Shown: positions 24,363 through 56,645, counted from the stretch's first letter. The stretch is 64,000 nt of DNA from Candidatus Spongiihabitans sp. (GCA_965237725.1 OZ250151.1:2435086-2499085), one strand, 5' to 3'. Numbers and translations: made by a program. Notes: generated by a model not told the origin, from the sequence alone.

Positions 24363-26127
24363 CTGTATCCGAATTTGTTTCTGTTTCTGTGCGCCGATAC
24401 TGGGTGTTGTACAGATGATAGTATTGCCCGTGTTGCGCCAATAATTCTTCGTGATTACCCCTCTCGATAATTTTTCCCTTGTCCAGCACCAAAATTAAAT
24501 CTGCGTTTTCGATTGTGCTCAATCGATGAGCGATTACCAGCGTAGATCGGTTTTTGATTAACTTGTGTATTGCCTTCTGTATATGCTGCTCGGACCGGGA
24601 ATCCAGTGATGAAGTGGCTTCGTCCAGAATTAAAATGGGCGCATCTTTGTATAACGCCCGAGCAATAGCAATACGTTGTCGTTGACCTCCGGATAAACGC
24701 GTCCCGGACTCGCCAACCATAGTATCCATTCCATCAGCAAAGGTATCTATAAATTCGGTGATGTGCGCCGCTTTCACCGAATCGGCCAGTTTCTTCTCAT
24801 CAATCTCACCGGATTCGCCATAAGTAATATTGTTTCTTACGTTATCGTCAAACAATACAATATCCTGGCTGACAATGGCCGCATTGTCTCGCAATGACGC
24901 CAGAGTTATGTTTTCAATGGGATGATCATCGATTGATATTTCACCTTTAAGCGGACTGTAGAATCTCATCAATGTAGATGCGACTGTGGACTTGCCTGCG
25001 CCCGATGGCCCTACCAGCGCCACTGTGGTTCCCGGTTCTATTTCAAAACTAATGCCATCCAGAATCGGCGTCTCATCTTCGGCATACCGAAATGAAACAT
25101 TTTTGAATGAAACCTTTCCCGAAACCTTTTCAAGTACCACCGTACCGTCATCTACCTCGGTCTCAAGATCCATTGTATTAAATACCGATTCCGCCCCCGC
25201 CATTCCGGTTTGTATCACTTCGTTGACCTTAGAAAGATTTTTTACTGGCCGCACGATCATGGTCATGGACACCAGATAGGATGTGAAAACCCCTGGTTTA
25301 ATTTCCAAGGCAAATGCAAACCAGATGACCACGGCAACGCCAATGCCCATAAGCAAAACCAGCAACGGAACACTGGCAGACAAAATCGCCGCTTTTTTCA
25401 TTGATTGTTGGCGATTGCGGTTATTGGCATCGAAAAATATTTTCTTTTCATGCTCATAGCCACCGAAAATTTTTACCAGCCTGTGACCCTGAAAACTCTG
25501 TTTGGCGATATGGGTTATGTCGCCGACACTTTCCTGAATCCTCGAGCTGATGTTTCTGAATCGTCCACTGGTAAACTTAAAGATATAAAACGCCGCAGGG
25601 AATATAACCAGAAATATCAGAGACAGTTTCCAGCTCAAATAAAACATCAGCGACAGCAAAAATATCGATTTAATAAAGTCTCGAAACAAAACCCTGAAAG
25701 CGCTGCTGCTGGCCCGTGCAACCTGCTCCACATCATAGGTCAATCTGGAAACCAGACTGCCGCTGGACTGATTGTCGAAATAACCCGTTGGCGCATAAAT
25801 CAAGCGATCAAACATTTTTTGTCGAAGGTCCTGGACAACCCGGCGGGCAACCCAGTTAATGCAATAACCGTCCACCAGATCTCCGAGGGCACGCGTCACC
25901 GCAATAAACACCAATGCCACGGGAATCCACTTTATATAAGTCGGGTCACGCTCAACAAAACCTTTATCCATCATCGGCTGCAAAACCCATGCGAATGAAG
26001 TATCCGCTGCAGCCACTACCAGCATGCCCAGCAATCCGGCCAGGAACGCCATTTTATAGGGCCACACATGGCGAAATAACCGTTTATACAGGTTAACGCT
26101 GGGCAATTTTTCGGTTGAGTCTGTCAC
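24352..26127 (-). CDS. msbA: Lipid A export ATP-binding/permease protein MsbA
   Basis: 591 aa. Six-TM ABC exporter domain, Walker A GPSGAGKST, signature LSGGQRQR, Walker B ILILDEATS. Upstream of lpxK. Confidence 0.9.
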   Translation of the reverse strand: MTDSTEKLPSVNLYKRLFRHVWPYKMAFLAGLLGMLVVAAADTSFAWVLQPMMDKGFVERDPTYIKWIPVALVFIAVTRALGDLVDGYCINWVARRVVQDLRQKMFDRLIYAPTGYFDNQSSGSLVSRLTYDVEQVARASSSAFRVLFRDFIKSIFLLSLMFYLSWKLSLIFLVIFPAAFYIFKFTSGRFRNISSRIQESVGDITHIAKQSFQGHRLVKIFGGYEHEKKIFFDANNRNRQQSMKKAAILSASVPLLVLLMGIGVAVVIWFAFALEIKPGVFTSYLVSMTMIVRPVKNLSKVNEVIQTGMAGAESVFNTMDLETEVDDGTVVLEKVSGKVSFKNVSFRYAEDETPILDGISFEIEPGTTVALVGPSGAGKSTVASTLMRFYSPLKGEISIDDHPIENITLASLRDNAAIVSQDIVLFDDNVRNNITYGESGEIDEKKLADSVKAAHITEFIDTFADGMDTMVGESGTRLSGGQRQRIAIARALYKDAPILILDEATSSLDSRSEQHIQKAIHKLIKNRSTLVIAHRLSTIENADLILVLDKGKIIERGNHEELLAQHGQYYHLYNTQYRRTETETNSDTDAG

Positions 26128-26212
26128 GGAATGGTTATACCAATTTTGTGTCCTTAGATTTTAACCCAGGCCAGGTTAATTCCAGCCAATTCAGTTTAGC
26201 GGGCCGGGATGA

Positions 26213-27187
26213 TTAATTGAGCTGTTTATGGGCCTTTCTTTCATCGCGAGGTGGAATACCAAAATATTCGCGATAACATTTGCTGAAGTGGGGGGTAGAT
26301 ACGAAGCCGCTGGCAAAGGCAATTTCGACTATGGGCATACTGGTCTGCAAAAGTAGCTGCCTGGCGTGCATCAGCCGCAGGCGCATATAATAACGCGTGG
26401 GCACACAGTGCAGGTATTTCTGAAACAGCCTTTCCAGTTGCCGCCGTGACAGCCCAACGTGACCGGCGATTTCATCCAGGCTAATCAACTCTTCTATATT
26501 GGCTTCCATGAATGCCACCGCTTCCGCCAGCTTTGGCTGACTGGCACCCAGTTGTAATCGTAACGGTAGTCTTTGACGGTCATTTCGACCACGGATACGT
26601 TCAACCAGAAATTCCTCTGCAATATCCGTGGCCAGGTCCCAGCCGTGTTTTTGTGCTATCAAATAAACCATCATATCCATGGCCGCGCTGCCACCGGCGC
26701 AGGTATAACGATCACGGTCAATTTCAAACAAGTCGGGGCTTATGATTAACTCGGGAAATCGCTCACGCAATCCAATCATATTTTCCCAGTGGATGGTGCA
26801 ACGATAATCTTTCAACAATCCGGCCTCAGCCAGAATATAGGTTCCCGTGCAAATCGCGCCGATGTGAACCCGGTTTTTGGCCTGCTCTCTAAGCCAGGTG
26901 GTAATTGGTCTTGTGGACTTGGTATCTATATGGGTGCCACCACAGACAAATACCGCATCAAGCTTTCCGGAACTCCTCATCTCTGTAGTGGCCACGGACA
27001 TTTCAGTACTGGCATACACAGGCTTGTCGGTCTCGGAAAGTATGACCCATTCATACAATTGTTTGCCCGATAACCGGTTAGCCATGCGCATCTGATCGAT
27101 AGCGGCGGTAAACGCCATCATCGAATACTCTGGCATAAGCAAGAAGCCATACCGATTAAATTCCGGGCTTAAACTAGTTTCTGACAT
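26213..27187 (-). CDS. GlxA-family transcriptional regulator (DJ-1/PfpI-like sensor domain + AraC HTH; GbdR/CdhR-like)
   Basis: 324 aa. N-terminal class-I-amidotransferase-like domain (GAICTGTYILAEAGLL) and a C-terminal AraC HTH (GFVSTPHFSKCYREYFGIPP). Divergent from the MttB-family gene. Confidence 0.85.
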   Translation of the reverse strand: MSETSLSPEFNRYGFLLMPEYSMMAFTAAIDQMRMANRLSGKQLYEWVILSETDKPVYASTEMSVATTEMRSSGKLDAVFVCGGTHIDTKSTRPITTWLREQAKNRVHIGAICTGTYILAEAGLLKDYRCTIHWENMIGLRERFPELIISPDLFEIDRDRYTCAGGSAAMDMMVYLIAQKHGWDLATDIAEEFLVERIRGRNDRQRLPLRLQLGASQPKLAEAVAFMEANIEELISLDEIAGHVGLSRRQLERLFQKYLHCVPTRYYMRLRLMHARQLLLQTSMPIVEIAFASGFVSTPHFSKCYREYFGIPPRDERKAHKQLN

Positions 27188-27335
27188 TAAAATCCATTGT
27201 TTTCTGAATAACAGTGATTATTAACCATGTCATGCCAGTGGCGCAATCGGTTATACCGAGGTCGCGCCATGGCCTGTGTTACAACCTGCATCACCCCATA
27301 CTCCATGTTTCGATCAAGTAACTAACAACCAATAC

Positions 27336-28868
27336 ATGTCTGAACAAGCTAAAAAACGCGGCGGTAGAAGAGGTCGCCAGGATGCCAAACAAGCCGAGGT
27401 GCCAAGCATAACGCCTTTTATTACCCGTAAGATCCCTGAGTACGAGTTAATTGGCGAGGAAGGACTGGCGTTAATTGAAAAGAATGCAGACACCATTCTT
27501 GAAGAAATAGGCATAGATTTTAGATACGAGCCGGCGTTAAAGCTTTTCAAGGAGGCCGGCGCAGATGTCCAGGGGGAACGGGTTCGTTTTCCAGCGGGTA
27601 TGTGCCGAAAAATTATTCAGAATTCAGCCCCAGCGATTTTTGAGCAAAAAGCGCGTAATCCTGCACGCAATGTCACTATTGGCGGGAAAAACACCGTGTT
27701 TGCACCGGTCTATGGACCGCCATTCATTCGCGATCTGGACAAGGGCCGTCGCTATGCCATGATCGAGGACTTTCGTAATATTGTGAAACTGACTTACATG
27801 CTGCCTTCCCTGCATCACTCGGGTGGAACGGTTTGTGAGCCCACGGATTTGCCGGTCAATAAACGCCACTTCGATATGGTGTATAGCCATATGAAGTATA
27901 GCGACAAACCGTTTATGGGATCAGTGACTCAGCCCGAGCGCGCCCAGGACACCGTCGACATGTGCAAAATCCTGTTTGGCGAACAGTTCGTAGAAGATAA
28001 TACGGTGCTGGTTAGTCTGATCAATGCCAATTCTCCCATGACCTTCGATGAAACCATGCTCGGGGCGTCGGAAGTTTATGCGCGCAATAATCAGGCCAGT
28101 GTAATTTCACCCTTCATCCTTGCTGGTGCCATGTCGCCGGTAACCTCTGCAGGCACAATGGCTCAGATACTGGCGGAAGCCATGGCCGGAATGTCATTCA
28201 CTCAGTTGGTCCGCCCGGGCTCGCCGGTGATTTTTGGTACCTTCGCAAGCTCCATATCCATGCAATCCGGCGCGCCGACTTTCGGCACCCCTGAGCCCGC
28301 CATTGTTTTACATGGCTGCGCAGCGTTAGCCCGCCGCCTTGGAGTTCCATTTAGAAGCGGTGGATCGCTATGCGGTTCAAAAATTCCCGATGCCCAGGCC
28401 GCCTATGAAAGCGCCAATACCCTGCTGCCCACTGTAACAGCGGGAGTTAATTTTGTCCTCCATGCCGCTGGATGGCTCGAAGGTGGATTGTCTTCTGGTT
28501 ATGAAAAATTAATTATGGATGCCGATCAGCTCGGCATGATGCAGGTATTCGCTGAGGGGCTGGATTTATCAGAAAACGCCCAGGCCTTAGACGCGATTCG
28601 TGAAGTGGGTCCCGGCACCCATTTCCTCGGCTGCGATCACACCCAGAATAATTTCATGACTGCGTTTTATCGCTCCAATATTGCGGATAATAATAGTTTT
28701 GAGCAATGGGAAATGGATGGCTCCCAGGACGCCATCATGCGCGCCAATAAAATCTGGAAACAGATGTTAAATGACTATGTGGCGCCGGAGATGGATCCGG
28801 CAGTGGACGAAGCGCTGCTGGCATTTATTGATCAACGAAAAGGTTCTTTTGCAGATTCGAATATATAG
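27336..28868 (+). CDS. MttB-superfamily methyltransferase without pyrrolysine (quaternary-amine:corrinoid methyltransferase, MtgB-like)
   Basis: The ORF track opens at GTG 27276. I prefer ATG 27336 (MSEQAKKRGGRRGRQ...), giving 510 aa. MttB-family blocks (HHSGGTVCEP, LINANSPMTFD, FVLHAAGWLEGGL) and no in-frame TAG. Confidence 0.88.
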   Translation: MSEQAKKRGGRRGRQDAKQAEVPSITPFITRKIPEYELIGEEGLALIEKNADTILEEIGIDFRYEPALKLFKEAGADVQGERVRFPAGMCRKIIQNSAPAIFEQKARNPARNVTIGGKNTVFAPVYGPPFIRDLDKGRRYAMIEDFRNIVKLTYMLPSLHHSGGTVCEPTDLPVNKRHFDMVYSHMKYSDKPFMGSVTQPERAQDTVDMCKILFGEQFVEDNTVLVSLINANSPMTFDETMLGASEVYARNNQASVISPFILAGAMSPVTSAGTMAQILAEAMAGMSFTQLVRPGSPVIFGTFASSISMQSGAPTFGTPEPAIVLHGCAALARRLGVPFRSGGSLCGSKIPDAQAAYESANTLLPTVTAGVNFVLHAAGWLEGGLSSGYEKLIMDADQLGMMQVFAEGLDLSENAQALDAIREVGPGTHFLGCDHTQNNFMTAFYRSNIADNNSFEQWEMDGSQDAIMRANKIWKQMLNDYVAPEMDPAVDEALLAFIDQRKGSFADSNI

Positions 28869-28928
28869 TCTGTTCGAAACCAGAGATCATGGCCTGAATC
28901 AAGACTTGTGCCAGGCCTCGATCGGACT

Positions 28929-29384
28929 TTAGATCAGGAATTTTCGCATATAGATTCGATCGAAGCCTTTTTCGGTAATCCTTCGAACTATGCTGTAACC
29001 CCATTTTTCATAAATTTCTACATTTTCAGTCATAAGTTCATGGGTATAAAGCTCAATAGCATCAAAGCCAAGTTGTGCCGCCCGCGCCTCCGCAAATGCC
29101 ACCAGTTTCTTGCCCAGCCCCTGACCCTGGGCCTGGTTTGATACCGCAACATTATCCAGCAAACAGCGTTCCTCATCGATGATCAACACCAGTACGCCAA
29201 CAACAATATCGTCAGACCTGATCACATAAGCTTCATCGTTTTTAATCCGATTCTCATAGTCATCCAGCATTGGCCCGGGGGGCTTGCCCAGGCGCTCGAT
29301 GTAATGCTCGTAAGCCTGGTTCACACAATCAATCATCCCGGGGATGTCGTCCAAAGTGGCACGCCGAATATCAGATGTGTCCAT
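28929..29384 (-). CDS. GNAT-family N-acetyltransferase
   Basis: 151 aa. AVSNQAQGQGLGKKLV acetyl-CoA binding motif (Q/RxxGxG/A). Confidence 0.85.
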   Translation of the reverse strand: MDTSDIRRATLDDIPGMIDCVNQAYEHYIERLGKPPGPMLDDYENRIKNDEAYVIRSDDIVVGVLVLIIDEERCLLDNVAVSNQAQGQGLGKKLVAFAEARAAQLGFDAIELYTHELMTENVEIYEKWGYSIVRRITEKGFDRIYMRKFLI

Positions 29385-29414
29385 TAATAGCTGGACCTGG
29401 GATGCATCCCAGAA

Positions 29415-30377
29415 CTACTTACTGGAAATAGCTCGCTTATGATCATCCCATAACCATATGTTGTCTTTGCTCAGATGAACACCGCCAATCCAACGGTCTG
29501 GACTATGCCAGTCCATCCAATTCATTTCTCCAGCCAAAATGGCCTTACCTTCCGGAGTTAACGAAAAAACATCTTGTTTGTTTCGTGGATCGAATTCGAG
29601 TTTCTTACCCGGTAATTTAATCAGCGGCCATTGCCCTTTTAATAACTCGCTCAATACATTCCAGAAACTGAGGTCTCCCATAAAAATTCTTTGCTCGCTT
29701 TTTTGCTGTGACCCGAACAGTTTCCCTGGATGAACCTTTTGGGATTGAATTATTTTCATTGTGCTGCTCGCGGTTCGTGACAGGCCGGTTTGACTATCTG
29801 GATACTCCTGGAGCTGGCGTTCAATGGCGCCATGAAGAAAAGGCAATGCCGAGGTGTCTGACTTAAGTAATTCTGCCCACTGCATCGGTGTGCTCTGGCG
29901 AAATGCAAACCATGCCCTGGAAGCAAGCTCCAGTTGCTCTGGAATTACTGGTTTTTCATGTTCAGAGAGTTCCGCAATCTGATCCGGTGTCTGGCGGCCT
30001 AGATATCGATCCGTACAAATCATGGATAATCGCGTCCCCACCAGATTTTGATTAGAGAACCAGTCCAGGATCTGCAGAATTTGCAGCTGATCATACAGGT
30101 CGTGTTCAAACCACAGGATCACTCGATCATAGTTGACAAATGAATTTAGAATTTCATCGCGCTGCTCAAAACTATTAAGAATATCCGATGCATCTCCCCA
30201 ACCTATGTCGGCAATATAATTTGCTCGCTGTCGAGACAATTGCGCCAGATTCAGATCATCGGGTACAGGGCCATCGTGCAACACATCTCGCCAGGGCAAA
30301 AACTCCCCGGGGACATCACCTTCGCGCATTAAACTCACCGCTGAATCGCCGTTGGTGATGTTGAGAATTTTTGGCAT
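29415..30377 (-). CDS. DUF1835/DUF3658-like protein of unknown function
   Basis: 320 aa. The N-terminus LNITNGDSAVSLMREGDVPGEFLPWRDVLHDGPVP matches my memory of the DUF1835 signature. Same strand, 54 bp downstream of the RACo-like gene. Confidence 0.55.
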   Translation of the reverse strand: MPKILNITNGDSAVSLMREGDVPGEFLPWRDVLHDGPVPDDLNLAQLSRQRANYIADIGWGDASDILNSFEQRDEILNSFVNYDRVILWFEHDLYDQLQILQILDWFSNQNLVGTRLSMICTDRYLGRQTPDQIAELSEHEKPVIPEQLELASRAWFAFRQSTPMQWAELLKSDTSALPFLHGAIERQLQEYPDSQTGLSRTASSTMKIIQSQKVHPGKLFGSQQKSEQRIFMGDLSFWNVLSELLKGQWPLIKLPGKKLEFDPRNKQDVFSLTPEGKAILAGEMNWMDWHSPDRWIGGVHLSKDNIWLWDDHKRAISSK

Positions 30378-30431
30378 GGCAGAAGTGTAACCAGCCGAGT
30401 TGGAACTAGCCAGCCCTGGCCAGCGCTACAA

Positions 30432-32450
30432 CTAACGCCGCTTACGTCGTCGTGGCCTTGCGCCTTCTTTTTCTTCGCTGCCACCTGAGCTCGGCTCCGG
30501 TAAATCAACTTCTTTTTTCAGGTTTACGAAATCTGCGGTTTTATGGGGTATAGCCAGGGCTTCAACAAAATGATCCTGAAATTTGGGCTCTATGGCCGTT
30601 TCCACTTTCTGGATACGCTTTACCACATCTTCAATTTCATGCCGGGCATCGATGTCGAGCAGAGTAATAGTCGCGCCCGTACCCGCGGCGTTTCCCGCAG
30701 AAGTCACATGCTCGAGCTCACAGTCCGGAATCATGCCCAGTACCATGGCATATTTTACGTCGATGTGTGCACCAAACGCCCCAGCCAACCTGATTCTGTC
30801 TACCGTATCTATATTTAATTTATCCATTAGCAATCGGGCGCCGGCGTACAGCGCTGACTTGGCCAGTTGGATGGCGCGGACGTCGTTCTGGGTAATCACT
30901 ACTTTCACCGAACCCTGATCATAAAGGTTGTAGCTCCAGGTCTTTTCGTCAGCAATTACCCGTGGGGATTTATTCGACATGGCGCCATCGATGACACCAT
31001 CGGTTTTGATTATTCCAGCCAGAAACATCTCTGCAATGACTTCAATTATTCCGGAACCACAAATACCGGTGACACCAATATCCGCAGTGGCCTGTTCAAA
31101 TCCCGGCTCATCGGACCAGACCTCGCTACCGATTACGCTGAATCGGGGCTCCAGTGTATCCCTGTCTATTCTTACTCGTTCAATGGCGCCGGGAGCAGCG
31201 CGTTGACCGCCGCTGATTTGAGCGCCTTCGAAGGCCGGTCCCGTGGGACTCGACGCCGCCACCATTTTTTTATTGTTGCCCAGTACAATTTCCGCATTTG
31301 TTCCCACATCCACCAGCAGGGTGAGTTCATCCCGCTCATAGGGTGCTTCGGACAGGGTCGCCGCAGCGGCATCAGCACCCACATGCCCGGCGATACAAGG
31401 CAGGATATACGCCCGGGCACCCGGATTTACATTTAGATCAAGATCAGAGGCTTTAATGTTTAAAGCGCCGTCGGTGGCCAGAGCAAAAGGTGCGCCACCG
31501 AGTTCCACAGGATTAATCCCGAGCAACAAATGATGCATCACCGGATTGCCCACAAGGGTCATATCCACTACATCGTTGATATCAACATCGACCTCTTCAA
31601 CCAGTTCTTTAAACAGACCTTGCAATGCTTCACGCACCGCAATGGTCATATCCACCTCACCACCCGGATTCATCATCACATAGGAAACCCGGCTCATCAG
31701 GTCTTCGCCAAACCGAATCTGTGGATTCATCCGGCCGGTAGAATTTATCGCCTCACCGCTGATCAGATCACACAAATGTGCCGCAATGGTGGTTGAACCG
31801 ACGTCAACCGCAACCCCATAGACTTTATTTTTTATCCCGGGCCAGATGGCAATGGCCTGGCGTTCATTGTGGATGGCTAAGGTCACTTTCCAGTCACCTT
31901 GACGCAAAACCGTTTGCAGCGATCCCAGTAAATGAAAATCAACTTCAATATCGGTTAGTCCCCAATCGAACTCCAGGGCATCGAGCATGCGTTGCAGATC
32001 GCCGGTGGGATCGTGCATATTCGGTTCCGGCACTTCAACATAATGTAATCTTACCGATGGGTTGACGGTTATATTATGCACATCCAGTCGTTTGCGGACG
32101 ACCTGGCGATGGGCCTGGCTTTCCGGCGGAATATCGATAACCACATCCCCCACCAGTTTGGCCTGGCATCCCAGACGCCGGGTGGACTTTGTTCCATCGG
32201 GGAAAAATTCTTTCTCGCTTTCGCTTCGGGGAGACAGATGCTCTGGGTTGGAATGAATTTTAAACTTGGCAAATTCACCCACGCTATGGTCGATCTGGCA
32301 GCGATCACAAATGCCTCGACCACCGCATACCGTATCCAGGTCAACGCCGAGCTGTTGTGCCGCTTCCAGCACCGACTTGCCCACAGCGATGTCGCCGTGC
32401 TTTCCGGAAGGGGTGAAAACAACCTGGACGGTTGTATCCTGGTTGCTCAT
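30432..32450 (-). CDS. Reductive activator of corrinoid enzymes (RACo/RamA-like; N-terminal 2Fe-2S ferredoxin + ASKHA ATPase domain)
   Basis: 672 aa. Plant-type ferredoxin Cys cluster (CGGRGICDRCQ), a central/C-terminal ASKHA-fold region (VDVGSTTIAAHL, LVDVGTNAEIV), and a basic tail ARPRRRKRR. Confidence 0.85.
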   Translation of the reverse strand: MSNQDTTVQVVFTPSGKHGDIAVGKSVLEAAQQLGVDLDTVCGGRGICDRCQIDHSVGEFAKFKIHSNPEHLSPRSESEKEFFPDGTKSTRRLGCQAKLVGDVVIDIPPESQAHRQVVRKRLDVHNITVNPSVRLHYVEVPEPNMHDPTGDLQRMLDALEFDWGLTDIEVDFHLLGSLQTVLRQGDWKVTLAIHNERQAIAIWPGIKNKVYGVAVDVGSTTIAAHLCDLISGEAINSTGRMNPQIRFGEDLMSRVSYVMMNPGGEVDMTIAVREALQGLFKELVEEVDVDINDVVDMTLVGNPVMHHLLLGINPVELGGAPFALATDGALNIKASDLDLNVNPGARAYILPCIAGHVGADAAAATLSEAPYERDELTLLVDVGTNAEIVLGNNKKMVAASSPTGPAFEGAQISGGQRAAPGAIERVRIDRDTLEPRFSVIGSEVWSDEPGFEQATADIGVTGICGSGIIEVIAEMFLAGIIKTDGVIDGAMSNKSPRVIADEKTWSYNLYDQGSVKVVITQNDVRAIQLAKSALYAGARLLMDKLNIDTVDRIRLAGAFGAHIDVKYAMVLGMIPDCELEHVTSAGNAAGTGATITLLDIDARHEIEDVVKRIQKVETAIEPKFQDHFVEALAIPHKTADFVNLKKEVDLPEPSSGGSEEKEGARPRRRKRR

Positions 32451-32451
32451 T

Positions 32452-32844
32452 TTAGTCAGCGTCGGTTAAAACAGGAAGATCGTGATAATCACTCTTGTCT
32501 TCGATAAATATATTTTTTTCGGTGATTAATCCAGTAGGCTTATCCACAGTTCCCGCTGTAATGCTGATGGAATCCGTACCGTTTCTCTGCCAGAACAAAC
32601 TGCTTCCGCAACGATTACAAAATCCGCGGCGTGCGTCCGTCGAAGAATCATACCAATGCAGAGTGTCTTCGCAAGTTAACTCGAAATTATCCATAGCGAT
32701 GCTGGTGGCAGCAAAATGATGTCCAGTGGTTTTTTGGCACTGAGTACAAAAACAGTTAGTAACCGGACGACATGGACCGGTTAATCTGTATCGAACGCCT
32801 TCACACAAACAGCCCCCAGTTCGTACTTCAACATTTTCAGCCAT
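32452..32844 (-). CDS. GFA-family (glutathione-dependent formaldehyde-activating enzyme / CENP-V-like) zinc protein
   Basis: 130 aa. GGCLCEGVRY..., CFCTQCQK and FCNRCGS cysteine clusters of the GFA domain. Its stop lies 1 bp from the RACo start. Confidence 0.85.
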   Translation of the reverse strand: MAENVEVRTGGCLCEGVRYRLTGPCRPVTNCFCTQCQKTTGHHFAATSIAMDNFELTCEDTLHWYDSSTDARRGFCNRCGSSLFWQRNGTDSISITAGTVDKPTGLITEKNIFIEDKSDYHDLPVLTDAD

Positions 32845-32881
32845 TGAAAATACCTGTAGTTATACTTCGTGTTGAGGAAAT

Positions 32882-33784
32882 TTAGGCCCGACGTCTGCGA
32901 CGGTTAGACCGGACACCGCCGGCACCGGTATTCTCTGCTGCTGGATCACGATATTTTTTCAACCACTTGACACAATTATTATCATGTCCCATGACAACAT
33001 CCGCAGCCATGACACCCTGCATGACTTCTTCGTGCATGGGATTGGTTATTGCTGAGGTCATACCAGAGCCGATAGCCATGCTGAGAAAATGCCCGTCCAT
33101 GCCCTTTCGGTTGGGAATACCAAAGCTGAAATTGGATGCACCACAGGTTGTATTCACTTTCAATTCTTCGCGCAGCCGCTTAACCAGATGCAAAACCTGC
33201 CGTCCCGCGCTGTTTACCGCGCCCACCGGCATAACCAGCGGATCGACAACGATGTCGCTGTAATGAATGCCATGGTCCGCTGCACGTTCGATAATTTTCT
33301 TGGCCACATCAAATCGCTCGTCGGGATTTTCTGAAATCCCGGCCTCATCATTAGATATAGCAACTACCGCGCAGTTATATTTTTTAACTAACGGCAGCAC
33401 CACTTCCAGACGCTCGTCTTCACCGGTCACCGAGTTCAGCAGCGGTTTGCCCTGATAGGCTTCCAGTCCGGCTTCGAGGGCGGCCACAATTGAGGAGTCA
33501 ATGGACAACGGTACGTCGGTGATAGATTGCACTAGCCGGATCGCTTCTGCAAGAATCCTGGGTTCATCGGCCAGGGGAATTCCGGCATTGACGTCGAGCA
33601 TTTTAGCACCCGCGGCCACCTGGGCCAGTGCATCACTTTCTACCCGGCTATAGTCACCATTCTTCATTTCCTCAGCGAGAATTTTCCTCCCGGTGGGGTT
33701 TATACGTTCACCAATAATTACAAATGGCTGATCGTATCCAATTCTTAGTTCTTTGGTTGCTGAACTGATAACCGTATCTGTCAT
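32882..33784 (-). CDS. Methyltetrahydrofolate:corrinoid methyltransferase (pterin-binding domain; MtgA/MetH-module-like)
   Basis: 300 aa. Pterin-binding TIM-barrel blocks (IGERINPTG, MLDVNAG, LSIDSS, LLNSV, GASNFSFG) and a basic tail SNRRRRRA. Confidence 0.85.
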   Translation of the reverse strand: MTDTVISSATKELRIGYDQPFVIIGERINPTGRKILAEEMKNGDYSRVESDALAQVAAGAKMLDVNAGIPLADEPRILAEAIRLVQSITDVPLSIDSSIVAALEAGLEAYQGKPLLNSVTGEDERLEVVLPLVKKYNCAVVAISNDEAGISENPDERFDVAKKIIERAADHGIHYSDIVVDPLVMPVGAVNSAGRQVLHLVKRLREELKVNTTCGASNFSFGIPNRKGMDGHFLSMAIGSGMTSAITNPMHEEVMQGVMAADVVMGHDNNCVKWLKKYRDPAAENTGAGGVRSNRRRRRA

Positions 33785-33828
33785 GCTTCTACTCTGATAA
33801 TAATGTTGCTGTAATGGTGTTACTTAAC

Positions 33829-33994
33829 TATGGAACCTCTGAACAAGTCATGACCGATCAAATTGAGTCCAAAATAATCAATATCGTCGTTAAAAAATCT
33901 CGGAATAGCCCTGCTATTGCTACGATGTTTTGCCTTGATCTTGATCATTTTGATTCTCAATTTGATTCGCCCAAACTTGTTCAGAGGTTCCCTA
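33829..33994. mobile_element. MITE-2: same family as MITE-3 but in opposite orientation, TA-flanked
   Basis: TA-TGGAACCTCTGAACAAGTC ... AACTTGTTCAGAGGTTCCC-TA. The reverse complement aligns along most of its length with MITE-3 (gggcgaatcaa, aaatgatcaagatcaaggcaaaa, tcgtagcaatagca, tgatcggtcatgacttgttcagaggttcc). Confidence 0.7.
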
Positions 33995-34079
33995 AATCTA
34001 CCCAGGCGCTATCGCCAAAATGTGTCTGAATATTGCCCGTTTTAATTTCGCTACACTGTCTCAATAGCGCCTCAAAATA

Positions 34080-34394
34080 TCAGGATTGGGCTGTGTTGTC
34101 CTCCTTGTTGCCATGATTTCGGATCAATGCCATTAATCTATCCTTGTCATATTCCGCTTCGAGTCGCGCGGCTTCCGCTTCAGCTTCCCCACGAAGGTCG
34201 TCGCCACAATCCACGGCGACTCTTTTCCACTCTTCGAGATAGGCATCCGAGCCCATTAGTCCGGCGCGCATGGCTGCGCGATCGATGGCATCAGCAAATC
34301 GCTCGGTAAGCTCAACTTTTTCAGAAACCCGGCGCTCTTTGGCCATAACCTGGGCTGGAATATCGCGCCAGTAAACGGTAATCAGTTTTGCCAT
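34080..34394 (-). CDS. Small virulence-factor-domain-like protein (unknown function; recurrent companion of DUF1638/corrinoid genes)
   Basis: 104 aa. The N-terminus MAKLITVYWRDIPAQVMAK matches my memory of this small family. Sits inside the corrinoid operon. Confidence 0.5.
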   Translation of the reverse strand: MAKLITVYWRDIPAQVMAKERRVSEKVELTERFADAIDRAAMRAGLMGSDAYLEEWKRVAVDCGDDLRGEAEAEAARLEAEYDKDRLMALIRNHGNKEDNTAQS

Positions 34395-34454
34395 TATTTA
34401 TAATCTCCTCTTAAAATATTGTTGTGGATAGTGGGTAGTAATTATTCTCATCAG

Positions 34455-35090
34455 CTATCCATTAGAAGGCTGGGGTTGTTTATGACTTCCAATTTTCACC
34501 GCCAAGGCAGATTGAAAATGATCATCGCCTGTAAAAATTCGTTGATATTCCAGGTCAAGATAATCAGCAGCTTCACGGGCCTTTTTATCTATGTCCTTAT
34601 CATCCAGCTGGGCGAGGTAAATCAACTTCTTGTAATTGCCGAAAAACTGCTGCTTTAACACCGGAAAACGGTCGAGTCCCAGGCCTTTTATCACCAGCCG
34701 ATCAAAATGGTTTGCCAAGAAATCGGTTAAATAAAATGTGCCCAACTCTGCCTCATGAAGCTGGTTAAAAACCTTTGCGCCGGAAAACATCTCATAACAA
34801 TGGGCGCCAGGTAAACGCTGAATACCTTCTTTTTCCAGCATCGAATCCAGCAATCCACCGGTACCGCAGTCAGAATAGGCCACAAACATTTGTTGATAGT
34901 CATTGCGATTTTCAACAATTTTCGCTTGCACCTCTCCAGGAATTTTCTGGGGATGATTATGCAATTCTGCGGGCAGGCACTGGATATCCATATGATCCCA
35001 GTTGTTCAGGGCTTTTATCCGCACGAGCTCGTGGGCCAATGCACCACAGGCGATAATCAAAACCCGATTTGAAAGCAGCTGGTCCGACAT
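34455..35090 (-). CDS. DUF1638 domain protein
   Basis: 211 aa. NRVLIIACGALAHEL N-terminus and a CGTGG block. Typical partner of MttB/corrinoid clusters. Confidence 0.7.
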   Translation of the reverse strand: MSDQLLSNRVLIIACGALAHELVRIKALNNWDHMDIQCLPAELHNHPQKIPGEVQAKIVENRNDYQQMFVAYSDCGTGGLLDSMLEKEGIQRLPGAHCYEMFSGAKVFNQLHEAELGTFYLTDFLANHFDRLVIKGLGLDRFPVLKQQFFGNYKKLIYLAQLDDKDIDKKAREAADYLDLEYQRIFTGDDHFQSALAVKIGSHKQPQPSNG

Positions 35091-35134
35091 AGTAAACGAC
35101 CTCTACCGAGATACCCCGAATTAATATGCAGCAA

Positions 35135-35212
35135 TTTCAGCAGTGCTGAAAGGTCCACCGGAAAAAATATTTTCCGGTGTTGCCTGAAGTCAAGTCCGGG
35201 GCAATTGCCCCG
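35135..35212 (-). promoter_or_regulatory. Three consecutive perfect palindromes/hairpins in the corrinoid-gene/DUF1638 intercistronic spacer
   Basis: TTTCAGCA-G-TGCTGAAA (35135-35151); CACCGGAAAA-aata-TTTTCCGGTG (35156-35179); CGGGGCAATTGCCCCG (35197-35212). The sequences are directly visible; their function is inferred. Confidence 0.3.
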
Positions 35213-35244
35213 TCCAAATTCTACGAAGTGAGTGCCGCCAGATT

Positions 35245-35943
35245 TTAGGCGGCTCGCTTTTCCGCCATTTTTGCCTGAGCGGTCTCCACTGCCACTGCAG
35301 CGTCCCGACAGTAGGCATCAGCACCAATTGCGGCACCAAATTCTTCGTTAAGTGGCGCCCCGCCAACCAATACGATGTAGTCATCGCGCATACCCTTTTC
35401 AACCAGGGTATCGATTACAACTTTCATATAGGGCATGGTTGTGGTCAACAGCGCAGACATACCAATGATATCGGGCTTGTGCTCCTCGATGGCGTCCAGG
35501 TAACTATCAACCGCATTATCGATACCCAGATTGATTACCTCAAACCCCGCACCTTCCATCATCATTGCCACCAGGTTTTTACCGATATCATGGATATCGC
35601 CTTTAACCGTGCCGATTATCATTTTGCCGATGGGTTCAGCGCCGGTTTCCGCCAGCAAGGGTCTGAGAATGGCCATTCCCCCTTTCATCGCATTGGCTGA
35701 CATCAAAACTTCGGGAACGAACAGAATACCGTCACGAAAGTCGATACCAACAATACGCATGCCTTCAACCAGTGCGTCGTCGAGAACCTTGCTCGCAGTC
35801 CATCCGCGGCCTAATAAAATATTTGTGCCTTCTATTATTTCTTCGCGCAAGCCATCATAAAGATCGTCGTGCATTTGTTCGACAAGCTCGTCGTCGGGCA
35901 ACGAGGATAAATCTAGATCATCATCGTTATTTTCATCTACCAT
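35245..35943 (-). CDS. Corrinoid (cobalamin-binding) methyl-carrier protein, MtgC/MttC-like
   Basis: 232 aa. B12-binding helical cap plus a Rossmann domain with the DxHxxG motif (GDIHDIGKNLV) and GMSALLTTT. Strongly acidic N-terminal extension MVDENNDDDLDLSSLPDDE. Confidence 0.9.
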   Translation of the reverse strand: MVDENNDDDLDLSSLPDDELVEQMHDDLYDGLREEIIEGTNILLGRGWTASKVLDDALVEGMRIVGIDFRDGILFVPEVLMSANAMKGGMAILRPLLAETGAEPIGKMIIGTVKGDIHDIGKNLVAMMMEGAGFEVINLGIDNAVDSYLDAIEEHKPDIIGMSALLTTTMPYMKVVIDTLVEKGMRDDYIVLVGGAPLNEEFGAAIGADAYCRDAAVAVETAQAKMAEKRAA

Positions 35944-36263
35944 TTCAAAATCCTGTCAAAAGTTTAGGAACAAAAGTTTTATTACGGTTTTCTTCGCATC
36001 GGGCACGAAAAATCATCGGCGAAATATACAAATCTACTACGAATAGAATTGTCGCCGCCGCGACATTACGAATCAAAATCGCGACGCCTATTCTAGGGCG
36101 ATTTTTTCCGAAATTTACGTTCTAGCTGCGACAATATTTCACCATTTTATTACGCTTATGTGTAAATCCAGCTGAAAATTCAAACAATTCAGGCTGTTAG
36201 GTCACTTCAACTTCTATAAACGGCCTGCTCCAGAGCAATACCTTCAACGGCCAATTTGGCTCG

Positions 36264-36827
36264 TTAAACTTTCACATTCTGGATGATTTTAAACAGATTG
36301 CCTTTTCCGGCTTTGAGTTCTTCTTCGCTTAAGTCCTGAACTTCGTGGGGAAAAACCAACCATTTATCGGTATTTCGCAAATAATAATCCGGCTCCCGAT
36401 CGGTTTTGTTGTTACCCGGCTTAAACCATGGCGCCGCAACCTTGATCTGTGACGGCGTATTTTTTCGAGTCCGCGCGGTGAGCTGCTCGATAACCGCTTT
36501 GATGCTGCGACCGGAGTCATAGACGTCATCCACTATTAACAATGCATTTTCCGAATTGAGGTTCTTGACCAGATAATCCAGGCCATGAACCCGGACTTTT
36601 TTGCTGGTAGACGAGATACCGGTGTATAACGAAGTCCGAACACTGATGTGGTCGGTGGAAATTCCAAAATATTCCAGCATTTCCTGGATCGCAATGCCTA
36701 CTGGTGCGCCGCCACGCCAGATGCCGACAATAAAATCGGGACGAAACCCGCTTTCAATGATCTGGCTGCCAAGCTGGTAGGAATCCTCGAGCAACTCCTG
36801 GGCGCTAATATAATGTTTTTCGGACAT
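36264..36827 (-). CDS. Phosphoribosyltransferase family protein (purine PRTase-like)
   Basis: PRPP motif LLIVDDVYDSGRS. The ORF track extends to 36896, but ATG 36827 (MSEKHYISAQELL) fits the family N-terminus better. Confidence 0.8.
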   Translation of the reverse strand: MSEKHYISAQELLEDSYQLGSQIIESGFRPDFIVGIWRGGAPVGIAIQEMLEYFGISTDHISVRTSLYTGISSTSKKVRVHGLDYLVKNLNSENALLIVDDVYDSGRSIKAVIEQLTARTRKNTPSQIKVAAPWFKPGNNKTDREPDYYLRNTDKWLVFPHEVQDLSEEELKAGKGNLFKIIQNVKV

Positions 36828-37068
36828 AGAAGATGACAGGTTGTAGTCGGTTAGATGATTTCTGGCTGCAATACCATTTCCCATTGAGTGTATCAATTGA
36901 GCCCGAATAATACGATGGTGTTTAAACTAACAAACAGAAATCTAATTCTGAAATCTGGGGAAAATCTGGGGACATAATACTCAATTAAAAACGAACGGGA
37001 TGGCGCTTATAATTATTGTTTATTGTGTCACCAGGATACTCTCTCGAATTCAATGGCTGGGAAATATA

Positions 37069-37155
37069 TGGTACCCGGGGCCGGACTTGAACCGGCACGA
37101 TGTTTCCATCGAGGGATTTTAAGTCCCTTGCGTCTACCAATTCCGCCACCCGGGC
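37069..37155 (-). tRNA. leuZ: tRNA-Leu (anticodon UAA)
   Basis: Minus strand GCCCGGGTGGCGGAATTGGTAGACGCAAGGGACTTAAAATCCCTCGATGGAAACATCGTGCCGGTTCAAGTCCGGCCCCGGGTACCA. It has a long variable arm, a CTTAAAA anticodon loop and an encoded CCA, and is close to E. coli leuZ. Confidence 0.92.
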
Positions 37156-37590
37156 ATTAGGGCTAATTTGCGTTAGGCCTGATAGTGCCTTTAAAACAAA
37201 CTGTAGACGCAGGCGTCTACTCATATCAACTTGGCCACCACCAAAACATTGTAGGTCTGATAGCACCTTGACTGCGAATTGTAGACGCTTGCGTCTACGC
37301 TTACCATTTTTGGCCACCACCCGGGCATTAGGGCTAATTTGCGTTAGGCCTGATAGTGCCTTTAAAACAAACTGTAGACGCAGGCGTCTACTCATATCAA
37401 CTTGGCCACCACCAAAACATTGTAGGTCTGATAGCACCTTGACTGCGAATTGTAGACGCTTGCGTCTACGCTTACCATTTTTGGCCACCACCCGGGCATT
37501 AGGGCTAATTTGCGTTAGGCCTGATAGTGCCTTTAAAACAAACTGTAGACGCAGGCGTCTACTCATATCAACTTGGCCACCACCCGGTAC
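37146..37590. repeat. Tandem repeat, 171-bp unit x ~2.6; copies are identical by eye; built of tRNA-Leu 5'-half-like sub-units with GTAGACGC/GCGTCTAC hairpins
   Basis: The anchor cattag recurs at 37155, 37326 and 37497 (period 171). Five perfect 8+8 inverted repeats lie at 37203-20, 37281-98, 37374-91, 37452-69 and 37545-62. The first copy overlaps nt 1-10 of tRNA-Leu. Confidence 0.92.
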
Positions 37591-37627
37591 TATCCGTTAG
37601 CGCGTAATAAACCAATGAAAATAAAAA

Positions 37628-37701
37628 TGGAGGCTGAGCCCGGAATCGAACCGAGGTCAACGGCTTTGCAGGCCGCTGCATAACCACTCTGCCACTCAGC
37701 C
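37628..37701 (-). tRNA. cysT: tRNA-Cys (anticodon GCA)
   Basis: Minus strand GGCTGAGTGGCAGAGTGGTTATGCAGCGGCCTGCAAAGCCGTTGACCTCGGTTCGATTCCGGGCTCAGCCTCCA. Cloverleaf with a CTGCAAA anticodon loop. Confidence 0.92.
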
Positions 37702-37757
37702 CCAGAATCGATACCAGTGCGCTTCTATAACAAAGTCTGGCTACGCATGAATCAAAA

Positions 37758-37832
37758 TGGAGCGGGAAACGAGATTCGAACTCGCGACCCCAACCTTGGC
37801 AAGGTTGTGCTCTACCACTGAGCTATTCCCGC
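37758..37832 (-). tRNA. glyW: tRNA-Gly (anticodon GCC)
   Basis: Minus strand GCGGGAATAGCTCAGTGGTAGAGCACAACCTTGCCAAGGTTGGGGTCGCGAGTTCGAATCTCGTTTCCCGCTCCA. Nearly identical to E. coli glyW as I recall it. Confidence 0.92.
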
Positions 37833-42083: not shown

Positions 42084-42752
42084 TTAATCGTTGTCATTAA
42101 GCCCAGCACCTGCACCGGCAAGGCGTGACGCTTCGCTGGCTTCCACATAAGTGCGATGGGCATAAATTTCCAGCTGCTTCCAGGATTTTAGATTTACTTC
42201 AGCATCACCAATGTTCATAGGAATGTCTTTGGTATCCGCCGATATAGAAATTTGGGTATAGCTGATTTGGCCCACCAATTTCATATCAATATCTTCTGTG
42301 TTCCCAGTTACCACAAGCACGTCGCGGTTGAGCTGCATGGTCACCGACGACCATTTCAGCGCCACAGACTGGTCCGAGGTTAACGCCGTCTGACCTAAAA
42401 ATCCTGCAGTGATTAACGGCCATGCAATGGGCCCGACCGTAATGGTTCGCTCCGCCATTGTGTTAATGCAGTCACACAGACTAATACCCGCCATAATTGG
42501 GCTAAGCACACCCCGCTGGCTGGTCCAGATTCCCTCCAGGGATTGGGGCGCATAGTCCAGGTGATGGTGATGATCGTATTCCTCAAACAATCCACATAAA
42601 CTGGTCACACCATCAAATCCATAAACATGCAACCAGCGTATGGCCTTGCCTACTTCGTCAGCGATACCCCAGGGCAGACCACAGCCTTTGGCCGCCTTGC
42701 GGCAGGTGTGTTCAATTTCGCCCAGGGAACGCATATTCTTTGACTTGCTCAA
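42084..42752 (-). CDS. Hypothetical protein (reminiscent of DUF3726-type proteins; unverified)
   Basis: 222 aa from TTG 42752, which overlaps the upstream stop, or 216 aa from ATG 42734 (MRSLGEIEHTCRKAAKGCGLPWGIADEVGKAIRWL). No catalytic motif recognised. Confidence 0.5.
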   Translation of the reverse strand: MSKSKNMRSLGEIEHTCRKAAKGCGLPWGIADEVGKAIRWLHVYGFDGVTSLCGLFEEYDHHHHLDYAPQSLEGIWTSQRGVLSPIMAGISLCDCINTMAERTITVGPIAWPLITAGFLGQTALTSDQSVALKWSSVTMQLNRDVLVVTGNTEDIDMKLVGQISYTQISISADTKDIPMNIGDAEVNLKSWKQLEIYAHRTYVEASEASRLAGAGAGLNDND

Positions 42753-44896: not shown

Positions 44897-44968
44897 ATTT
44901 TCGAGTTAAACTTTTTGAGTAAAATTGGTAAAATTTTTTCCGGGTTAAACCCAAGGAATAAACAATAG

Positions 44969-45312
44969 TGGGAGTTGGCCGATAAGCCGGGTTCTGTCGA
45001 GAACAGTTATTCATCTGGGTCGTTTGTCACCAAACGCCTCTAGCAACCTACCCGGATCCAACGCGGGCCACGCCATACGGATCCCTATTCGGTCTTGCTC
45101 CAGGTGGGGTTTACCCTGCCGCTAAAGTTACCAGTAGCGCGGTGCGCTCTTACCGCACCATTTCACCCTTACCTTATAAAAAGGCGGTATATTTTCTGTG
45201 GCACTAGCCGTCAGCTCACGCTGCCCAGGAATTACCTGGCACCTTCGCCCTATGGAGCCCGGACTTTCCTCGATATCCCGAAGGATAGCGCAACTGTCTG
45301 GCCAACTCCCGA
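44969..45312 (-). ncRNA. rnpB: RNase P RNA, bacterial type A
   Basis: The minus strand reads GGGAGTTGGCCAGACAG...GAGGAAAGTCCGGGCTCCATAGGGC...GGTAAGGGTGAAATGGTGCGGTAAGAGCGCACCGC...ACAGAACCCGGCTTATCGGCCAACTCCC. It is collinear with E. coli M1 RNA, and the P1 stem closes GGGAGTTGGCC/GGCCAACTCCC. The ends are approximate. Confidence 0.92.
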
Positions 45313-45406: not shown

Positions 45407-46336
45407 ATGTTCGCCATACCCGCAACAAAACAAACCATCGTCGTAACCCTATTGTTACTCGCTGGCCTTTTGGTCAACACCGACCTGACTTCCCTATTAA
45501 ACTGGATTCAGATATTGGGTATTTGTGTGGGCTTTGTTTATATCTGTTTTATAGTGAACATTCCCGAGGATAAAGCCGCGGCGCTTATGCGCTGGATTTT
45601 TGTTATCGGGATTGCTGCAATACTCCTGCTGATCTGGCATAGCCAGAATGCAATCGTTGCCATTTATCTTGTTGGCGCTACGTTTTTAACGGGTTATTTT
45701 ATAGCCTGCCAGTTCAATCTGACGTCAGGCCATCGCCCTTTGACAACAACAATTAGCATCGCCATTATTGTTAGCCTTATATTAATTTGCTCTCCAACCA
45801 CCATCAGTCGAATCGAAATCAGCCTGATTAACTTACCCGTCCCGAGCAAGTTCTGGCTCTACAGTGACGATGCGCGTCAGGCGCCCCATACAGTTTCAAA
45901 AGGTTTTGGTATGCCTACCATGCATGCTCTTAAAGTACATTTGAATGCAGACAATGTGGGGATTACTGAACCCATGCCTTCGATACGACTCCAGGGACGA
46001 CACGATACGTTGTTCTCCATTGATCGTATTCGATACAAATTTTTACATGTGACTGTTCACCAACTACTGGCTGACAACCTGTCCGAGATAAAGTTGGGTG
46101 AAAACAGCGATGAGGTCATCCTGGAAAAAATACCAACTGGCATATTAATCTCGGATGTGAATCAGGGGGAATCGGTGTGGCTTGATCTTCCCGACCTGGA
46201 TTCCAAAGCGATATCCACCAGCGTAATACTAAAAACCATAGTTGTGAAAGTATTTGTCTGGTTACTGGCCTGTACCGTGTTTTTTAGCTGGGCACCCGGT
46301 CTGCGGCAAGCCAGCGTAGGAGAGTCGGGAAATTGA
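45407..46336 (+). CDS. Hypothetical membrane protein (about 5 N-terminal TM helices, ~130-aa loop domain, 1 C-terminal TM)
   Basis: 309 aa. Hydrophobicity pattern only; no motif recognised. Confidence 0.55.
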   Translation: MFAIPATKQTIVVTLLLLAGLLVNTDLTSLLNWIQILGICVGFVYICFIVNIPEDKAAALMRWIFVIGIAAILLLIWHSQNAIVAIYLVGATFLTGYFIACQFNLTSGHRPLTTTISIAIIVSLILICSPTTISRIEISLINLPVPSKFWLYSDDARQAPHTVSKGFGMPTMHALKVHLNADNVGITEPMPSIRLQGRHDTLFSIDRIRYKFLHVTVHQLLADNLSEIKLGENSDEVILEKIPTGILISDVNQGESVWLDLPDLDSKAISTSVILKTIVVKVFVWLLACTVFFSWAPGLRQASVGESGN

Positions 46337-56589: not shown

Positions 56590-56594
56590 TAAAC

Positions 56595-56615: not shown

Positions 56616-56645
56616 TTTGTTTCTACCCCTTCGCTGAAGTATTCC

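Follow-up and report, generated by a model that had tools for sequence, protein, structure and literature searches.

The 64,000-nucleotide stretch analysed here (OZ250151.1:2435086-2499085 of GCA_965237725.1; the window, in what follows) carries between positions 26213 and 35943 a compact cluster of ten genes that would form a cobalamin-dependent route for moving methyl groups from quaternary amines to tetrahydrofolate (THF). A first-pass annotation of this DNA had listed the ten genes with their domains, and our listing of open reading frames (ORFs) together with Pfam models finds every one of them where it had been placed. Two of the genes are divergent: a GbdR-like regulator of the GATase1-like AraC (GATR) subfamily on the reverse strand (26213-27187; Pfam HTH_18, HTH_AraC, and DJ-1_PfpI) and, on the forward strand, mttB1 (27336-28868; Pfam MTTB, 768 bits), which encodes a non-pyrrolysine, MtgB-like member of the MttB family. 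The mttB1 ORF opens at GTG 27276 and runs to 28868 on the forward strand; we take ATG 27336 to be the likely start, as residue 28 of the frame read from GTG is the first in the Pfam match. All other genes lie on the reverse strand. The operon begins with the gene of an MtgC-like corrinoid (cobalamin-binding) protein (35245-35943; Pfam B12-binding_2 and B12-binding), followed by genes for a DUF1638 protein (34455-35090; Pfam, 100 bits), a small PF13769 ('Virulence_fact') protein (34080-34394; Pfam, 82.8 bits), a pterin-binding protein in the predicted role of the methyl-corrinoid:THF methyltransferase MtgD/MtgA (32882-33784; Pfam Pterin_bind), a GFA/CENP-V family zinc protein (32452-32844; Pfam GFA, 72 bits), and a RACo/RamA-type reductive activase with an N-terminal 2Fe-2S domain and an ASKHA ATPase (30432-32450; Pfam RACo_linker, Raco_middle, and RACo_C_ter). 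A DUF1835-like protein of 320 aa (29415-30377) and, as last gene on the operon strand, a GNAT acetyltransferase (28929-29384; Pfam Acetyltransf_1, _7, and _10) come after it. The five companion genes (DUF1638, PF13769, GFA, DUF1835-like, and GNAT) thus share the strand of the operon and are separated by short gaps. Substrate methyltransferase, corrinoid protein, methyl-THF methyltransferase, and RACo/RamA activase are all present and, as the first-pass annotation had held, the methyl-to-THF module is complete.

The conservation of this arrangement was surveyed in 80 genome loci that surround homologs of RACo (58-86% identity) in Alpha-, Beta-, and Gammaproteobacteria and in a small number of other metagenome-assembled genomes (MAGs), to which four close relatives were added; the loci were queried with the proteins of the window, and counts were made over the 62 loci that have at least 5.5 kb upstream of RACo. 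The pterin-binding protein adjoins RACo in 61 of the 62 loci, the corrinoid protein is found in 52, and DUF1638 and PF13769 are found in 51 each, 48 of the PF13769 genes occurring with DUF1638 at a median gap of about 51 nt. In 43/62 loci from Alpha-, Beta-, and Gammaproteobacteria, among them a MAG of SUP05 (Ca. Thioglobus), a clade named by Mausz et al., the genes run colinearly on one strand in the order corrinoid protein, DUF1638, PF13769, (metV-metF), pterin-binding protein, and RACo. The five core genes are present in 6/6 of the genomes formed by the window and its five nearest relatives (RACo at least 84% identical). DUF1638 and PF13769 are accordingly core members of the operon. The hub has an MttB1-type gene (55% identity or more) within 10 kb in 27/62 loci and a GbdR-like regulator (45-60% identity) in 25/62. 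The slot between the PF13769 and pterin genes holds, in most related loci, a MetV-like small subunit (PF12225) and a methylenetetrahydrofolate reductase (PF02219), for example at 7564-9038 in L048 and 7176-8649 in L007, a gene pair that fits the oxidation of the methyl-THF product. The lineage of the window has lost metV-metF from this slot, which is an ORF-free spacer of 295 nt in the window (33785-34079), measures only 89-98 nt in the closest relatives, and holds an unrelated 354-aa ORF without a Pfam match in L085 (7477-8541).

The proteins that would carry, transfer, and reactivate the methyl group have intact signatures. The corrinoid protein shows the DxHxxG motif as D116-x-H118-x-x-G121 and is conserved at 72-96% identity over 57 loci, including the SUP05 MAG (83%, L007); its score against the NCBIfam model MtgC_2 is 198 bits, under the cut-off of 370, and the proteobacterial corrinoid protein has been described as a clade apart from the MtgC of anaerobes (Mausz et al., PNAS 2025, PMC12478193). 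The pterin-binding protein passes the NCBIfam methyl-THF:corrinoid methyltransferase model PRK07535 (363 bits against a cut-off of 259). In the activase, C42, C48, C51, and C95, which belong to the 2Fe-2S cluster of the N-terminal ferredoxin-like region, are invariant across 82 loci, and the order of the 2Fe-2S, linker, middle, and ASKHA domains is that of RACo from Carboxydothermus hydrogenoformans, AcsV, and RamA. Its scores against the NCBIfam models AcsV (411 bits, cut-off 800) and RamA (112 bits, cut-off 500) both remain under cut-off and therefore place it in a distinct proteobacterial subgroup. No second corrinoid, pterin, or RACo set was found within the 64-kb window.

The mttB1 reading frame contains no in-frame TAG, as had been noted before, and its product is far closer to MtgB than to the pyrrolysine-containing trimethylamine methyltransferase. 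Against Protein Data Bank entries MttB1 scores 773 bits with 4yyc, 418 bits with MtgB (2qne, 9yce), and 117 bits with true MttB (7xcl), so that its bit score against MtgB is about 3.5 times that against true MttB. A true MttB was thus rejected as an identity for MttB1, given the lack of an in-frame stop, the score against TIGR02369 (258 bits with a cut-off of 525), and the 117 bits to 7xcl. The closest solved relative, 4yyc, named 'putative trimethylamine methyltransferase', aligns over nearly the full length at roughly 70% identity by inspection; the entry, which we take to be a structural-genomics deposit from Sinorhizobium meliloti, carries no assigned function. An Rfam scan returned a match to PYLIS_3, the pyrrolysine insertion sequence of mttB, inside mttB1 (28369-28467, forward strand; 47.4 bits against a gathering score of 38) and no match in the second MttB gene of the window described below; because the mttB1 frame is continuous and has no UAG, this match probably reflects homology of the coding sequence. 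The 32 MttB genes (at least 55% identity) found near the hub in related loci are all of the MttB1 type (65-88% identity to MttB1, 47-53% to MttB2), and MttB1 is therefore the canonical hub-linked paralog.

The second, non-pyrrolysine paralog, MttB2, is encoded outside the cluster (62351-63886, forward strand; Pfam MTTB, 685 bits), 114 nt before the window stops, and is 48% identical to MttB1. It scores 552 bits with 4yyc, 340 bits with MtgB, and 119 bits with true MttB, in a comparison of both paralogs that covered, of the named methyltransferases of this family, MtgB and MttB. In the glycine betaine site of MtgB, Y97 and F356 make cation-pi contacts to the quaternary amine, and R312 and H348 contact the carboxylate (Picking et al. 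2026, PMC13080624). Both paralogs keep Y97, R312, and H348 and have Gly at the position of F356, within a common AAGWLEGGL motif; for this mapping, the chain numbering of 9yce is the native numbering minus 2, an offset that was checked on R, H, F, and Y. MttB2 has a divergent LysR regulator (61349-62284) and a major facilitator superfamily (MFS) transporter (60074-61345) as neighbours, and the motif scan of the 64-kb window found no GbdR-type site near it. Since two MttB paralogs with different regulators stand beside a single corrinoid/pterin/RACo set in the window, one corrinoid protein probably serves several substrate-specific methyltransferases, as in the model of Mausz et al., and MttB2 would probably deliver its methyl groups to the same corrinoid protein as MttB1. 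The region around MttB2 (53067-63886) also encodes a DDAH/amidinotransferase-like protein, an intradiol dioxygenase, an EamA transporter, an Ldh_2-family dehydrogenase, an aldehyde dehydrogenase, and an M19 dipeptidase. Among the members of the Ldh_2 family are pyrroline/piperideine-2-carboxylate reductases and N-methyl-amino-acid dehydrogenases, and the neighbourhood hints that a cyclic or N-methyl amino-acid betaine might be the substrate of MttB2.

The GbdR-like regulator of the cluster matches the NCBIfam GbdR equivalog with 447.7 bits (E 2.9e-134), just under the cut-off of 480, and GbdR is its best model, about 300 bits ahead of the next. It shares the DJ-1/PfpI plus AraC architecture with GbdR, CdhR, SouR, and ArgR of Pseudomonas aeruginosa; the CdhR site carries GGTCGC in each of two directly repeated half-sites with a 15-bp spacer and is much like the sites of GbdR, SouR, and ArgR (PMC5806209). 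We find two predicted sites of this kind in the window. One lies upstream of mttB1 (27240-27265, forward strand) and has direct half-sites GGCGC and GTCGC whose starts are 21 bp apart; the other (36060-36085, reverse strand) reads GTCGC-N16-GTCGC and lies 142 nt upstream of the corrinoid gene start. The literature core GTCGC-N16-GTCGC is exact at the operon site and has one mismatch at the mttB1 site. On both strands of the 64-kb window, GKCGC-N16-GTCGC gives two matches against 0.11 expected, and two matches occurred in 0/100 shuffles, a statistic that is partly post hoc, the first half-site having been relaxed after both sites had been seen. Stronger, independent support comes from other genomes: 22 related loci have the direct repeat in the same orientation at 85-182 nt upstream of the corrinoid gene, and the background density over all loci predicts less than one such motif in 200-nt one-strand windows summed over 57 loci. 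L001, L017, L027, and L083 have the motif upstream of MttB as well, the last of them conserving the mttB1 site, and in Ca. Spongiihabitans the mttB1 site is a perfect direct repeat without palindrome, GGTCGC-ATTCGGTTATACCGA-GGTCGC (that is, GGTCGC-N15-GGTCGC), followed by GATATG. The Pseudomonas sites and those predicted in the window thus have in common GGTCGC-type direct half-sites, a 15-bp spacer, and a divergent promoter. It seems reasonable to conclude that mttB1 and the hub operon are under the joint control of a GbdR-type activator through these predicted sites, with DNA binding and effector inferred from the likeness to the Pseudomonas regulators. In Pseudomonas, GbdR controls the oxygenase route of glycine betaine (GbcAB), whereas the GbdR-type regulator of the window is apparently wired to the cobalamin route.

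Much of what had seemed puzzling about this cluster has counterparts in the recent literature. The MtgB/MtgC/MtgA system of Desulfitobacterium hafniense was reportedly described by Ticak et al. in 2014. It has the same three-component logic as the window (PDB 2qne, 9yce; PMC13080624); D. hafniense is an anaerobe, and its MtgB has F356 where MttB1 has Gly. The aerobic Ruegeria pomeroyi requires MtgC and MtgD to grow on glycine betaine as well as to make methionine, N-osmolytes induce a RamA-like and a DUF1638 protein along with two proteins of PF06253, and mtgC homologs were traced to marine Alpha-, Delta-, and Gammaproteobacteria, SUP05 among them, where they often share an operon with genes for reactivation (PMC12478193). 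The first-pass annotation had treated the aerobic setting as an open surprise; it no longer is one, the same system with RamA and DUF1638 having been demonstrated by genetics and proteomics in aerobic R. pomeroyi and also reported from marine Gammaproteobacteria. Nor is DUF1638 the unexplained companion it was taken for, as genetics had tied RamA-like and DUF1638 proteins to B12-dependent methionine synthesis in aerobic Phaeobacter, although no specific function was given to DUF1638 (Price et al. 2018, PMC5764234). Compared by description, the MtgBCD system of R. pomeroyi DSS-3 and that of the window have PF06253, B12-binding, pterin-binding, RamA-like, and DUF1638 parts and an aerobic, marine host in common. 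The corrinoid protein of the window is tied to SPO2160 of R. pomeroyi and PGA1_c13350 of P. inhibens only indirectly, through its 83% identity to that of the SUP05 MAG L007, SUP05 being among the clades listed with mtgC by Mausz et al. The two systems differ in the taxon of the host, that of the window being an Arenicellales-like gammaproteobacterium related to sponge symbionts, in layout (scattered in R. pomeroyi, clustered in the window), and in that the operon of the window lacks metF and has GFA, GNAT, and DUF1835-like genes appended. What had been put forward as new, Co(I) chemistry in an aerobe and five unexplained companions, is thereby largely resolved by the literature and the neighbourhood analysis. 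What is new here is modest: an Arenicellales lineage among the bearers of the system, PF13769 as a core partner not reported so far, the Cys/His signature of DUF1638, and a widely conserved GbdR-type operator on the cobalamin route. Neither PF13769 nor GbdR-type promoter sites are mentioned in the main text of PMC12478193, and 'virulence' is absent from the text of its supplements.

The two conserved companions deserve a closer look. The DUF1638 residues C15, C75, C98, H44, H97, D74, and D123 show no variation over 55 loci, of which 52 also keep C38; this set of Cys, His, and Asp residues hints at a metal or Fe-S site, as would suit a helper in redox chemistry. The AlphaFold2 model of the protein (predicted local distance difference test, pLDDT, 84.7) has two alpha/beta lobes, and a Foldseek search of it against the PDB gave only generic alpha/beta matches (best E 6e-3, TM score at most 0.42). 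The PF13769 protein has about 8000 database homologs; over the 57 loci, W9, R10, P13, R22, F33, and D38 are invariant (57/57), D11, Y52, and W56 are nearly so, and no invariant cysteine was found. Its AlphaFold2 model is weak to moderate (pLDDT 64) and found no fold match in the PDB by Foldseek (best E 0.5); in our literature search, no paper names PF13769. One might speculate that the 'virulence factor' is misnamed and that it forms with DUF1638 an unrecognised accessory pair, for example an electron relay or adaptor linking RACo and the corrinoid protein, that would keep the corrinoid protein active in proteobacterial, largely aerobic hubs; we put this forward tentatively.

Taken as a whole, the cluster is best read as an MtgBCD-type cobalamin-dependent methyl-transfer hub with several inputs, under GbdR-like regulation, a reading that we consider probable. 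MttB1 would demethylate a quaternary amine, glycine betaine being the most likely one, and hand the methyl group to Co(I) of the corrinoid protein, from which the pterin-binding protein would move it to THF. A cofactor that has been oxidised to Co(II) would be reduced again by the RACo/RamA-type activase by means of its 2Fe-2S cluster and ATP, and DUF1638, probably with the neighbouring PF13769 protein, would help to keep the cofactor active. The GbdR-like regulator would turn on both mttB1 and the corrinoid operon via the direct-repeat promoter sites, and MttB2, under its own LysR regulator, would probably act on another substrate and supply its methyl groups to that same corrinoid protein. 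The betaine-type methyl-to-THF pathway that had been proposed for this locus thus gains support from complete domains, intact catalytic motifs, an MtgB-like MttB1, and a conserved operon.

One competitor to the demethylation hub holds that the corrinoid, pterin-binding, RACo, and DUF1638 proteins are mainly a split cobalamin-dependent methionine synthase of housekeeping nature, the pterin-binding protein running from methyl-THF to the corrinoid protein, the homocysteine methyltransferase being encoded elsewhere, and MttB being secondary. Homologs of the corrinoid and pterin-binding proteins, of RamA, and of DUF1638 are indeed needed for methionine synthesis in Phaeobacter inhibens and R. pomeroyi, and the survey shows that the hub exists without a linked MttB. 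We nevertheless find this account unlikely, since the GbdR-type site that the operon promoter has in common with mttB1 points to catabolic induction, the metV-metF pair in the operons of most relatives is consistent with methyl-THF oxidation, and no homocysteine methyltransferase gene is present in the window; moreover, the two roles are not exclusive, a dual function in betaine demethylation and methionine synthesis having been proposed by Mausz et al. (PMC12478193). A second alternative accepts the module and changes the substrate of MttB1 to proline betaine, carnitine, gamma-butyrobetaine, or choline. In place of F356 of MtgB, MttB1 has Gly, within the clade-specific AAGWLEGGL motif, the aromatic pair is known to vary among family members with different substrates (Picking et al., PMC13080624), the regulator falls just short of the GbdR cut-off, the carnitine-sensing CdhR uses the same site architecture (PMC5806209), and carnitine is abundant in sponge tissue. 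Set against this are the three other binding residues, all kept in MttB1, the lead of GbdR over any other regulator model, and the requirement for the homologous system during growth of R. pomeroyi on glycine betaine (PMC12478193). On balance, glycine betaine is our best guess, by a small preference that owes much to the near-GbdR regulator; another carboxylate-bearing quaternary amine is possible, and the wider group of alternative substrates is for us the less likely choice. Several observations weigh against the hub as we describe it, beside the post hoc element in the motif count. Replacement of F356 by Gly means that the specificity of MttB1 may differ from that of MtgB; no activity of proteobacterial MttB1-type proteins is reported in the published accounts of the system, and the MtgB proteins of R. 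pomeroyi are shown as induced only (PMC12478193). The window has no betaine transporter beside mttB1, no dimethylglycine or sarcosine genes, and no metF, and the predicted structures of PF13769 and DUF1638 offered no functional clue.

Two further proposals, both rooted in the first-pass annotation, concern single parts of the cluster. The annotation had pointed to an interrupted inverted repeat in the spacer between the regulator and mttB1 (about 27235-27272), and one could see in its GCGCCATGG symmetry the operator of the regulator. The repeat does exist in the divergent promoter region, and with a 1-nt bulge 10 of its positions pair, which only 2.6% of shuffles reach; its perfect arms are, however, just 6 nt, a length reached by 57% of shuffles, and no inverted repeat of at least 8 nt was found in the spacer. 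As a conserved element it does not hold, the direct repeat being what is conserved: the changes in L083 are not compensatory, and in Ca. Spongiihabitans the palindrome is destroyed and a perfect direct repeat made by the left half-site, which is GGTCGC, together with the right flank GCGATATG. Regulators of the GATR subfamily bind direct repeats (PMC5806209) and the site upstream of the operon has the same direct repeat without a palindrome, so that the inverted repeat is very unlikely to be the operator. It is harder still to credit that all five companions are functional parts of the demethylation module. They do lie on the operon strand with short gaps, the GFA gene abuts the start of RACo, and GNAT directly follows RACo in three of the six genomes formed by the window and its nearest relatives, among them the close relatives L083 (59% identity) and L085. 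Yet full-length DUF1835-like genes occur in 0/62 loci and, among these six genomes, in the window only; GNAT occurs in 2/62 loci; and GFA, present in 11/62 loci within 10 kb (in 5 of them in the pterin-RACo slot) and in four of the six genomes, is missing from L082 and L084, that is, from two of the five nearest relatives. Co-conservation with the cluster therefore stands for DUF1638 and PF13769, partly for GFA, and only locally for GNAT, and it fails for the DUF1835-like gene.

These last three genes appear to have different histories. The GFA protein has all seven cysteines of the Zn site (CxC, CxCxxC, and CxxC motifs), which are conserved in relatives; its gene also lies between the pterin and RACo genes in truncated contigs such as L005 and L015. 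A bona fide Gfa, the S-(hydroxymethyl)glutathione synthase of Paracoccus, was considered as an identity and dismissed (TIGR02820, 21 bits against a cut-off of 234.55). GFA is a recurrent accessory concentrated in the lineage of the host, and GNAT follows RACo in the nearest relatives only; any role of either in the hub would be that of an accessory. The DUF1835-like protein scores 18.5 bits with Pfam DUF1835, under the cut-off of 21.1, has no NCBIfam match, and is one of a widespread family of full-length proteins, about 320 residues long, with 959 representative clusters at E<1e-30 (best identity 52%); this family showed no link to corrinoid clusters. Between RACo and GNAT of L083 (8672-8818), a C-terminal relic of 49 residues (47% identity, E 8e-9) remains, and the gene was therefore apparently present in the common ancestor with the lineage of the window and decayed later; it would be a passenger limited to this sub-lineage.

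The spacer that takes the place of metV-metF holds a palindromic element resembling a miniature inverted-repeat transposable element (MITE), at 33832-33991, with inverted arms of 39 nt and inverted GGAACCTCTGAACAAGT termini. As RNA, the spacer has a folding energy of -102 kcal/mol, compared with -58.4 +/- 4.9 for its shuffled versions (z = -8.9). The terminal 17-mer GGAACCTCTGAACAAGT forms a second inverted pair at 59813-59996, intergenic and before the MFS gene near MttB2, and it is on account of this second copy that the element resembles an insertion of MITE type; weaker single-arm matches lie at 11014, 14542, and 56598. An Rfam scan found no cobalamin, THF, or S-adenosylmethionine riboswitch in or near the cluster, and a scan of 26000-36400 for sigma-70 promoters and terminators gave no excess of matches over shuffles.

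The host is an Arenicellales-like, aerobic-type gammaproteobacterium close to the sponge symbiont Ca. Spongiihabitans: the nearest named relatives of its RACo are from Ca. Spongiihabitans sp. (86% identity), Arenicellales MAGs (75%), and Ca. Poriferihabitans (73%). The cluster is flanked by efp-UDG-uvrC-pgsA-comF on one side and (msbA)-lpxK-kdsB on the other, and it occupies the same place in Ca. Spongiihabitans and in the Logan contig L083; it was therefore inherited within the lineage. A recently acquired island was considered and rejected on this synteny and on the GC content of the cluster, which is unremarkable with respect to the rest of the window. Elsewhere in the window, the interval from the comF-like gene to pgsA holds three tRNA genes (36985-37566 and 37072-37832, both on the reverse strand), one of which is overlapped by a 193-aa ORF (36985-37566, reverse strand) that is probably spurious, and a bacterial class A RNase P RNA is found at 44967-45309 (reverse strand). 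Long ORFs without a Pfam match (517, 571, 309, and 401 aa) occur at 13873-15426 (reverse), 42749-44464 (reverse), and 45407-47538 (forward). A DUF3726 gene comes after the 571-aa ORF, and in L082 a 549-aa gene followed by DUF3726 adjoins efp, the long ORFs being matched by position only. The segment 15618-22551, adjoining def-fmt-rsmB, is a sugar- or lipopolysaccharide-modification island that encodes a haem-oxygenase-like iron enzyme (PF14518), TylF-like and class I methyltransferases, a GT2 glycosyltransferase, an ATP-grasp-like protein, a DegT aminotransferase, and a CMP-sugar cytidylyltransferase.

While our findings overturn nothing in the current understanding, they extend the recently described aerobic B12-dependent demethylation of betaines to a lineage of the Arenicellales that is related to sponge symbionts, betaines and carnitine being abundant in sponge tissue, and they present the system as a compact regulated cluster instead of scattered genes. 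The linkage of PF13769 to the corrinoid protein is as tight as that of DUF1638, and the small protein is one of three testable leads, beside the Cys/His set of DUF1638 and the predicted operator; if our tentative proposal is true, the PF13769-DUF1638 pair would be a new component of B12 reactivation beyond RamA/RACo. Finally, the predicted GbdR-type operator found upstream of the corrinoid operon in many Proteobacteria would tie the regulator of the Pseudomonas oxygenase route to the cobalamin route of betaine demethylation.

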